From positions 1-7,006 of the IMG/VR virus record IMGVR_UViG_2703719365_000001: a stretch of DNA of 7,006 nt; one strand, given 5' to 3'. Every line of letters begins with the position of its first letter. Position 1 is the first letter of the stretch. This DNA comes from a virus (Duplodnaviria; Heunggongvirae; Uroviricota; Caudoviricetes). The translations under genes were made by a program, and so were the position numbers. The notes beneath the pieces were generated by a model, which was not told the origin of the DNA, ran no database searches, and was given only the letters and a program-made list of their open reading frames with translations. Below, piece by piece: positions 5,711-6,226 of this stretch.

Positions 5711-6226
5711 ATGGCGTTAACACACCACGAACTCTGTCAGATTGCGTACAAGTTCCTTAAGCGCAACGGGTTCAAGGTTTGCTTTCATGACCGCTTTGTT
5801 GCTGTAACCAGTACCGGAGAACAGCCAGATGCTATGGGATTCAGAAATTCAGCATCATGCCTGATAGAGGCGAAGTGTTCTCGTGCTGACTTGTTGGCAG
5901 ATAGAAAAAAGCGTTTCCGTAAAAATCCCTCACTTGGCATGGGCGACTGGCGATTCTTTATTAGTGAGCCGGAAATTATTTCAGTTGAGGATTTACCTCC
6001 CGGCTGGGGATTACTTCACGTTGTTAACGGAAGAGTACGGAAAGTACATGGATGGCCCAGGGGTAATTGCTGTTGGGGTAATCCTGACGATAAGCCATTT
6101 ACTGGGAATAAGCAGGTTGAATGCGATTACATGTTATCTGCATTAAGGCGCATGGAGTTGAGAGGGCACCTTAATGAAATATATGACGGTGTGATTGTTA
6201 ATAAGAAAGAAGGAAACGCGGCATGA
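5711..6226 (+). CDS. Hypothetical protein, 171 aa, with a candidate PD-(D/E)xK nuclease-fold motif
   Basis: GGAG at 5701-5704 lies 6 nt upstream of the ATG at 5711; the track start (TTG at 5678) is inside the upstream gene and has no SD. Motif '...GEQPDAMGFRNSASCLIEAKCS...' has PD followed 13 residues later by E-A-K. There is also a Cys/Trp-rich segment 'GNCCWGNPDD'. Confidence 0.8.
   Translation: MALTHHELCQIAYKFLKRNGFKVCFHDRFVAVTSTGEQPDAMGFRNSASCLIEAKCSRADLLADRKKRFRKNPSLGMGDWRFFISEPEIISVEDLPPGWGLLHVVNGRVRKVHGWPRGNCCWGNPDDKPFTGNKQVECDYMLSALRRMELRGHLNEIYDGVIVNKKEGNAA

Follow-up and report, generated by a model that had tools for sequence, protein, structure and literature searches.

What is encoded by the 171-codon open reading frame (ORF) at positions 5711–6226 (+) of a 7,006-nucleotide (nt) stretch of Caudoviricetes DNA (IMG/VR record IMGVR_UViG_2703719365_000001; the whole stretch is hereafter called the window), and is the PD…ExK pattern in its translation the mark of a nuclease, as an earlier note had proposed from this short motif? 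The ATG-started ORF, which encodes a PD-(D/E)xK-fold protein of 171 amino acids (aa) and was delimited, stop codon included, with the ORF list, the homologues, and the structural model, was present as described there. The Shine–Dalgarno sequence AAGGAG (5699–5704, +) lies 6 nt 5′ of the ATG, inside the 3′ end of an ead/Ea22-like gene whose TGA stop codon (5707–5709) ends 1 nt before the ATG, and an ATGA stop/start overlap (6223–6226, +) with the next gene (6223–6732) indicates translational coupling to the latter. Most of the 308 homologues found for the protein share the same start Met. The evidence described below supports the inference of a nuclease: we are highly confident that the protein folds as a PD-(D/E)xK nuclease, is homologous to such enzymes, and has an intact active site of this kind, and sequence comparison places its family as a large unnamed sister group of the MmcB-like proteins (PF06319/DUF1052) and, more distantly, of archaeal Hjc.

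The motif by itself proves nothing, since D-x(8–20)-[DE]-x-K arises in 52% of 20,000 shuffles of the protein, and its PD version in 4%, so that its occurrence alone is not beyond chance; it is taken as real because of its conservation. The catalytic core, EQPDAMGFRNSASCLIEAKCS (residues 37–57; 5819–5881, +), was defined by conservation and by alignment to Hjc and to the solved MmcB-like structure 3dnx. Among 33 enterobacterial homologues (58–88% identity), Glu37, Asp40, Glu53, and Lys55 are invariant. Among 42 diverse members (33–55% identity to the target), obtained by scanning 1.84 billion cluster representatives with HMMER, Asp40, Asp60, Gly78, Arg81, and Glu137 are invariant, and His5, Glu37, Pro39, Glu53, Lys55, Ser57, Phe61, Asp64, Lys67, Arg70, Pro96, Trp99, Gly100, Leu101, Arg146, and Arg147 are each at least 90% conserved. 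The PD-(D/E)xK signature claimed in the earlier note is thus borne out by conservation of Asp40, Glu53, and Lys55 in both close and diverse homologues.

An AlphaFold2 model built on a 33-sequence alignment (mean predicted local distance difference test score, 85.3; predicted template modeling score, 0.79) has the αβββαβ topology of the restriction-endonuclease-like core, composed of α1 (residues 5–18), β1 (22–25), β2 (41–45), β3 (48–54), α2 (58–65), and β4 (80–85), followed by a β-hairpin (100–113) and a long C-terminal helix (134–150). The N-terminal helix predicted earlier to precede the core corresponds to α1. Glu37, Pro39, and Asp40 are located at the start of the second strand, with Asp40 preceding β2, and Glu53-x-Lys55 closes β3, which is the canonical placement in the PD-(D/E)xK superfamily. 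In Foldseek searches against viral models, family members ranked first, followed by phage proteins named ‘MmcB-like DNA repair protein’; matches to the PDB were weak, the best-ranked ones being mostly PD-(D/E)xK nucleases, and the model matched 3dnx over the whole chain. Structure prediction and fold search therefore both agree with the suggested nuclease fold.

Standard libraries were nearly silent on the protein: Pfam and NCBIfam gave no match at E ≤ 1, none of the PADLOC families matched, phmmer against PDB sequences returned only noise, and the matches in PHROGs were to the ‘unknown function’ families phrog_9263 and phrog_631, plus a weak one to ‘DNA repair protein’. Profiles of the family were more informative. 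Aligned by hhalign with MmcB, represented by 55 full-length Rhodobacteraceae proteins recovered from metagenome loci, the family gave a probability of 97.5% (E, 5e-12; 96 columns). The family profile matched the 3dnx sequence with an E-value of 5.7e-5, the catalytic residues aligning with its D…ECK motif, and matched Hjc (1hh1) weakly (E about 0.6) with the catalytic Asp/Glu/Lys in register. The counterparts of Asp40, Glu53, and Lys55 in Sulfolobus Hjc are Asp42, Glu55, and Lys57, and the α1 glutamate of that enzyme is Glu12. Scanned against Pfam, the 42 diverse members gave sub-threshold matches to Hjc (23/42; best E, 1.3e-4), MmcB-like PF06319 (11/42; best E, 2.9e-4), AHJR-like (4), and UPF0102/YraN (2); bit scores, available for four long members, were 16.9–17.7 for Hjc, below its gathering threshold of 21.1 bits, whereas the scan of the 42 gave E-values; no MmcB model appeared in the NCBIfam scan of family members. 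On the hidden Markov model (HMM) of the 55 MmcB proteins, the target scored 9.8 bits against 303 bits for true MmcB, and on the HMM of the present family, MmcB scored 22 bits against 104–215 bits for members. Profile homology to MmcB, combined with missed library models and low HMM scores, points to a separate sister family of MmcB.

The 51-aa fragment of the 3dnx sequence retrieved only PF06319 or ‘MmcB family DNA repair protein’ entries, and all of the database entries returned were truncated or frameshifted MmcB. Similarly, mmcB is split into two ORFs (76–78 aa and 52–68 aa) in Rhodobacteraceae metagenome contigs (L003:1501–1962, L005:1501–1959, and L006:1501–1959), either by frameshift errors or as real pseudogenes.

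Several conserved elements surround the catalytic core. Helix α1 (5723–5764, +), seen in the model and in the alignments, carries the near-invariant His5 and Leu8. Helix α2 bears the motif S-R-x-D-[FL]-L-x-D-R-K-K-x-F-R (residues 57–70; 5879–5920, +), in which Ser57, Asp60, Phe/Leu61, Asp64, Lys67, and Arg70 are conserved; the motif is also found in MmcB (ECKSSRADFxxDxKW), drives the match to 3dnx/MmcB, and probably contacts the DNA backbone. Strand 4 contains GMGDWRFF (residues 76–83; 5936–5959, +) with the invariant Gly78 and Arg81. The family hallmark LPPGWGLL (residues 95–102; 5993–6016, +), whose highly conserved residues are Pro96, Trp99, Gly100, and Leu101, leads into strand 5 and aligns with LPxxTGLI of MmcB, and the C-terminal helix (6110–6160, +) with the invariant Glu137 and the conserved Arg146–Arg147 pair corresponds in the alignment to the ARRK helix of MmcB. 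The Cys/Trp-rich stretch noticed earlier does exist as GWPRGNCCWGN (6050–6082, +), but it forms a variable, gapped loop in the alignments, in which Trp122 alone is conserved. A zinc site was ruled out there, as Cys120 and Cys121 are replaced in most homologues, and the stretch is thus not a metal-binding motif.

From the gene structure, fold, homology, catalytic-residue conservation, and genomic distribution, which were established directly, we infer the biological role, the substrate, and the metal-dependent catalysis itself. That the catalytic carboxylates and lysine have been kept across phyla speaks for an active enzyme, and the small size without an added domain argues against sequence-specific or modification-dependent recognition; together with the nearest relatives MmcB and Hjc, these features favor a metal-dependent structure- or lesion-specific endonuclease. 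On balance we lean toward a small enzyme of this type that would work independently on intermediates of the element’s DNA that are damaged or branched. As a stand-alone PD-(D/E)xK phosphodiesterase, it would hold one or two Mg2+ ions at a putative metal site formed by Asp40 and Glu53, with Glu37 and/or Asp27 as extra carboxylates, and Lys55 would position the attacking water. The DNA backbone would be held by the basic residues of helix α2 (Arg58, Lys66/Lys67, and Arg70), Arg81, and Arg146/Arg147. Since there is no extra recognition domain, cleavage is expected to be directed not by sequence but by DNA structure or by damage (branched, stalled-fork, or cross-linked DNA), a mode of action demonstrated for Hjc and suggested for MmcB. 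The enzyme, expressed from the early-left (pL) operon of the phage in translational coupling with its neighbors, would need no dedicated partner and would process such intermediates of the element’s own DNA soon after entry or induction.

The window is 98–99% identical to the early-left region of Shiga toxin (Stx)-converting lambdoid phages of the genus Oslovirus (Ss-VASD, Lyz12581Vzw, and many Stx2a phages) and represents the ‘exo-xis’ accessory region of the phage. Its gene order starts with RecT (99–779), a YqaJ-type exonuclease (776–1465), and a protein called SSB by RefSeq (1465–2052, +), followed by one hypothetical gene, DUF2303/YfdQ (2538–3359), another hypothetical gene, a PAPS-reductase-like PP-loop protein (3987–4865, +), small ORFs, and the ead/Ea22-like gene (5257–5709) directly before the target; a variable DUF551-type region comes after the target. 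The 195-aa protein named ‘single strand DNA binding protein’ in RefSeq phage records had no Pfam or PADLOC match at the thresholds used. The PP-loop protein matched SspD in PADLOC (E, 9e-15) and, more weakly, DndC and BrxP, and it may be an ATP pyrophosphatase of the DNA-modification type and not an enzyme of sulfate assimilation. In most Stx2a phages (e.g., Lyz12581Vzw), similarity to the window ends at position 6250, ~25 nt past the target stop codon, and in Ss-VASD and PPwrbA_EH2201 it ends at 6592; these breaks indicate mosaic recombination junctions directly 3′ of the target, inside the DUF551-type region.

In every annotated record examined, the target is named ‘hypothetical protein’, and the intact 171-aa ORF is mis-called in many genomes. 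In Escherichia coli O104:H4 FDAARGOS_349 (NZ_CP027394.1, 884778–885293; L002:7001–7516), RefSeq lists DNA 100% identical to the target gene as a ‘frameshifted’ pseudogene of 179 nt, and elsewhere a 111-aa C-terminal fragment is annotated instead (P0052; 645 member sequences).

The family comprises 3,245 clusters at 50% identity. Near-identical DNA was found in 928 of 5,426 complete E. coli genomes, at 1,049 chromosomal places and 248 on plasmids, and a relative is encoded by 478 IMG/VR contigs. Viral neighborhoods were read in 68 of the best 80 IMG/VR loci, namely those with the gene called. They are mosaic and contain no constant partner; 232 of the 266 flanking genes are co-directional, and the commonest neighbors are ead/Ea22-like, DUF551-like, xis/int, repressor, and replication genes. 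Relatives occur in mosaic early operons of lambdoid and P1-like phages and of phages of roughly 100 kb. A subgroup at 58–62% identity resides on IMG/VR contigs of 87–107 kb (L122–L136) with genes that, judged by eye, resemble those for a DNA ligase, a Toprim/primase-like protein, and a metallophosphatase, and these contigs, likewise judged by eye, may be SSU5/pHCM2-like phage-plasmids. Domain fusions are sporadic (one TniB-like ATPase and one Ead/Ea22 read-through) and were not informative.

A scan of species-representative genomes, seeded with a six-sequence alignment of distant members, detected 127 relatives. Most of the best 80 belong to Acidobacteriota (Terriglobales), where they fall into two conserved chromosomal syntenies (L187–L256; e.g., L214:6001–6612), and single matches were obtained in Stenotrophomonas, Maridesulfovibrio, Syntrophobacteraceae, Dyadobacter, Lysinibacter, and others. 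In one synteny, the family gene follows a gene for a CHAD/HD protein and is convergent with the dnaX-ybaB-recR operon, whose recR end is nearest to it. What looked like tandem paralogues in Acidobacteriota proved to be an artefact of clustering, since the genes upstream encode CHAD/HD-domain proteins. The conserved chromosomal sites suggest a vertically inherited housekeeping gene and argue for a generic DNA-maintenance activity, and the chromosomal copies mean that the family extends beyond mobile elements. Where a mobile element does carry the gene, however, it sits in the first-expressed DNA.

By tblastn, 864 plasmid records, 411 of them conjugative, contain a relative, in Escherichia, Pseudomonas, Salmonella, Acinetobacter, Burkholderia, Vibrio, Xanthomonas, and other hosts. 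All three inspected IncF plasmids encode a 172-aa homologue with 63–67% identity (L169:8977–9495, L174:6988–7506, and L175:7977–8495) in the leading region, directly 3′ of psiB-psiA; for one of them, psiB and psiA are missing from its incomplete PLSDB gene table. One has the order ardA … DUF905–parB-like–psiB–psiA–homologue … SLT–traM; in the other two, ssb is located before DUF905. In two of the three, hok follows the homologue. The psiA–homologue junction recurs in 205 of 4,565 psiA-matching plasmids. This post-psiA slot implies that plasmid homologues should enter and be expressed early, like the phage copy from pL. In other elements, a copy follows ead/Ea22 (a P1-like phage-plasmid), adjoins umuDC (a Citrobacter plasmid), lies between a C5-methyltransferase gene and ssb (a Pseudomonas plasmid), or is found among orphan methyltransferases (a Pseudomonas megaplasmid). 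Distant members on Acinetobacter indicus pB18-1 (L171:6986–7711) and a Vibrio alfacsensis plasmid (H57) are labeled ‘adenylosuccinate synthase’, which looks like an annotation error because their N-terminal 130 residues align with the nuclease family.

The umuDC-adjacent copy was counted in favor of an autonomous structure- or lesion-specific endonuclease. Several points weigh against such an enzyme: the α1 acidic residue usual in Hjc-type enzymes is not conserved, position 7 varying among the 33 enterobacterial homologues; the Acidobacteriota synteny with recR/dnaX is convergent rather than operonic and may reflect vertical inheritance alone; and an anti-defense role would account equally well for finding the gene in early operons of phages and leading regions of plasmids. 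In that role, which we consider possible but rather unlikely, the nuclease would serve not in repair but in destroying or disarming a host defense component or a competing element on entry, with host nucleic acid, a defense-associated DNA or RNA structure, or a signaling nucleotide as the possible target. The location of the IncF homologues directly after psiB-psiA and near ssb, ardA, and orphan methyltransferases, at a junction shared by the 205 plasmids, speaks for it, as do the Pseudomonas plasmid copies among orphan DNA methyltransferases, rdgC, and ssb, and the early-left accessory location of the phage copies; anti-defense genes are overrepresented in leading regions (PMC11541004). However, no known anti-defense family was matched, PADLOC being empty for the target; leading regions and early operons also hold ordinary DNA-metabolism genes (ssb, parB-like, umuDC, and recT); the text of the Nature 2024 leading-region paper makes no mention of such a nuclease; and the syntenic chromosomal members of Acidobacteriota are hard to reconcile with a purely anti-defense role. 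The repair-type and anti-defense/establishment readings are not mutually exclusive. Tentatively, and with a low probability, the family may be a previously unrecognized ‘establishment nuclease’ common to phages and conjugative plasmids, made in the first minutes after DNA entry, which would counteract host defense or rid the incoming DNA of lesions and structures related to defense or SOS.

A further reading is a phage Holliday-junction resolvase, an Hjc-like dimer working with the upstream RecT/YqaJ-exonuclease module, whose genes belong to the same operon in the window. Hjc is the most frequent sub-threshold Pfam match, and the catalytic residues align with it; among the 68 viral loci, RecT-like and YqaJ-like genes are each nearby in only two. 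We regard this possibility as unlikely. It is quite improbable that the protein is a non-catalytic nuclease-fold DNA-binding regulator of the lysis–lysogeny decision, as other exo-xis products are reported to be. Its gene does lie in the exo-xis region next to ead/Ea22, and products of this region modulate lysogeny (PMC7093339, PMC10789677), but the retention of Asp40, Glu53, and Lys55 in at least 90% of a multi-phylum family is a signature of retained catalysis, and the exo-xis literature searched does not mention the ORF. Hardly credible, finally, is a modification-dependent nuclease, an option raised in the earlier note, or a functional partner of the upstream PP-loop enzyme, despite their co-directional operon and the weak resemblance of the latter to SspD/DndC: a length of 171 aa leaves no room for a modified-base reader domain, and no PAPS-reductase homologue was found within 6 kb of a family member in any of the 68 viral loci, or in the annotated or clustered flanks (7–9 kb on each side) of the O104:H4 prophage, P1-like, IncF, and chromosomal copies. 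A coupling of the target to this enzyme was accordingly rejected.

Within a superfamily that is itself well known, the target family forms a new, unnamed branch at the family level; no new principle is involved. It nevertheless concerns a very common protein, ‘hypothetical’ everywhere, whose family is without a Pfam or NCBIfam model, and its placement as a sister family of MmcB/Hjc with a predicted intact catalytic site suggests a biochemical function that can be tested and supplies sequences for building a family model. As it recurs in the DNA that Stx phages and IncF resistance plasmids express first, it may reasonably be considered a candidate factor in the establishment of mobile DNA, which bears on Stx-phage induction by DNA-damaging antibiotics and on plasmid spread. 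If it is only another small repair nuclease, the assignment is a useful annotation and no surprise; an establishment or anti-defense function, if true, would be of greater interest.

Among known systems, possible functional analogues from the phage lambda literature are Rap (NinG) and RusA, small phage structure-specific endonucleases that assist recombination. Their folds and families are unrelated to those of the target, and their genes belong to the nin region of the early-right operon rather than to the exo-xis/early-left region; a NinG-like gene (cluster 7, recognized by eye) is a frequent neighbor within 6 kb in the viral loci. Hjc (PF01870; 1hh1, 1ob8, and 2eo0), the archaeal resolvase of four-way (Holliday) junctions, is like the target a minimal PD-(D/E)xK nuclease of similar size with aligned catalytic Asp/Glu/Lys. 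Among the establishment genes of plasmid leading regions (ssb, psiB/psiA, ardA, and orphan methyltransferases; PMC11541004), the homologues take the slot just 3′ of psiA in about 200 IncF plasmids; these genes constitute a positional class rather than a homologous family, and the target copy itself is on a prophage. The closest comparison is that with MmcB-like/DUF1052 proteins, represented by 3dnx (SPO1766 of Ruegeria pomeroyi) and assigned to the PD-(D/E)XK superfamily (PF06319, COG5321; PMC3424549). Caulobacter MmcB is described as an SOS-regulated PD-(D/E)XK endonuclease with a protective role against mitomycin C and cisplatin, and one hypothesis has it working together with translesion polymerases at interstrand cross-links (PMC9578287). 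Both families have an acidic residue after β1, the motif E-C/A-K-x-S-R-x-D-F-x-x-D-x-K, an aromatic β4, LPxxxGL[LI], and a C-terminal helix ending in RR. Specific to the target family are the N-terminal T-H-x-x-L, G-E-x-P-D, the K-K-x-F-R…G-M-G linker, G-W-G-L-L, the variable loop, and the invariant Glu137; E37-x-P-D takes the place of R-V-D in MmcB, and the linker (K-K-x-F-R-x-x-P-x-x-G-M-G) is longer. Whereas MmcB is mostly alphaproteobacterial, chromosomal, and SOS-regulated, the target family is found mainly on proteobacterial phages and plasmids and, in Acidobacteriota, on chromosomes.
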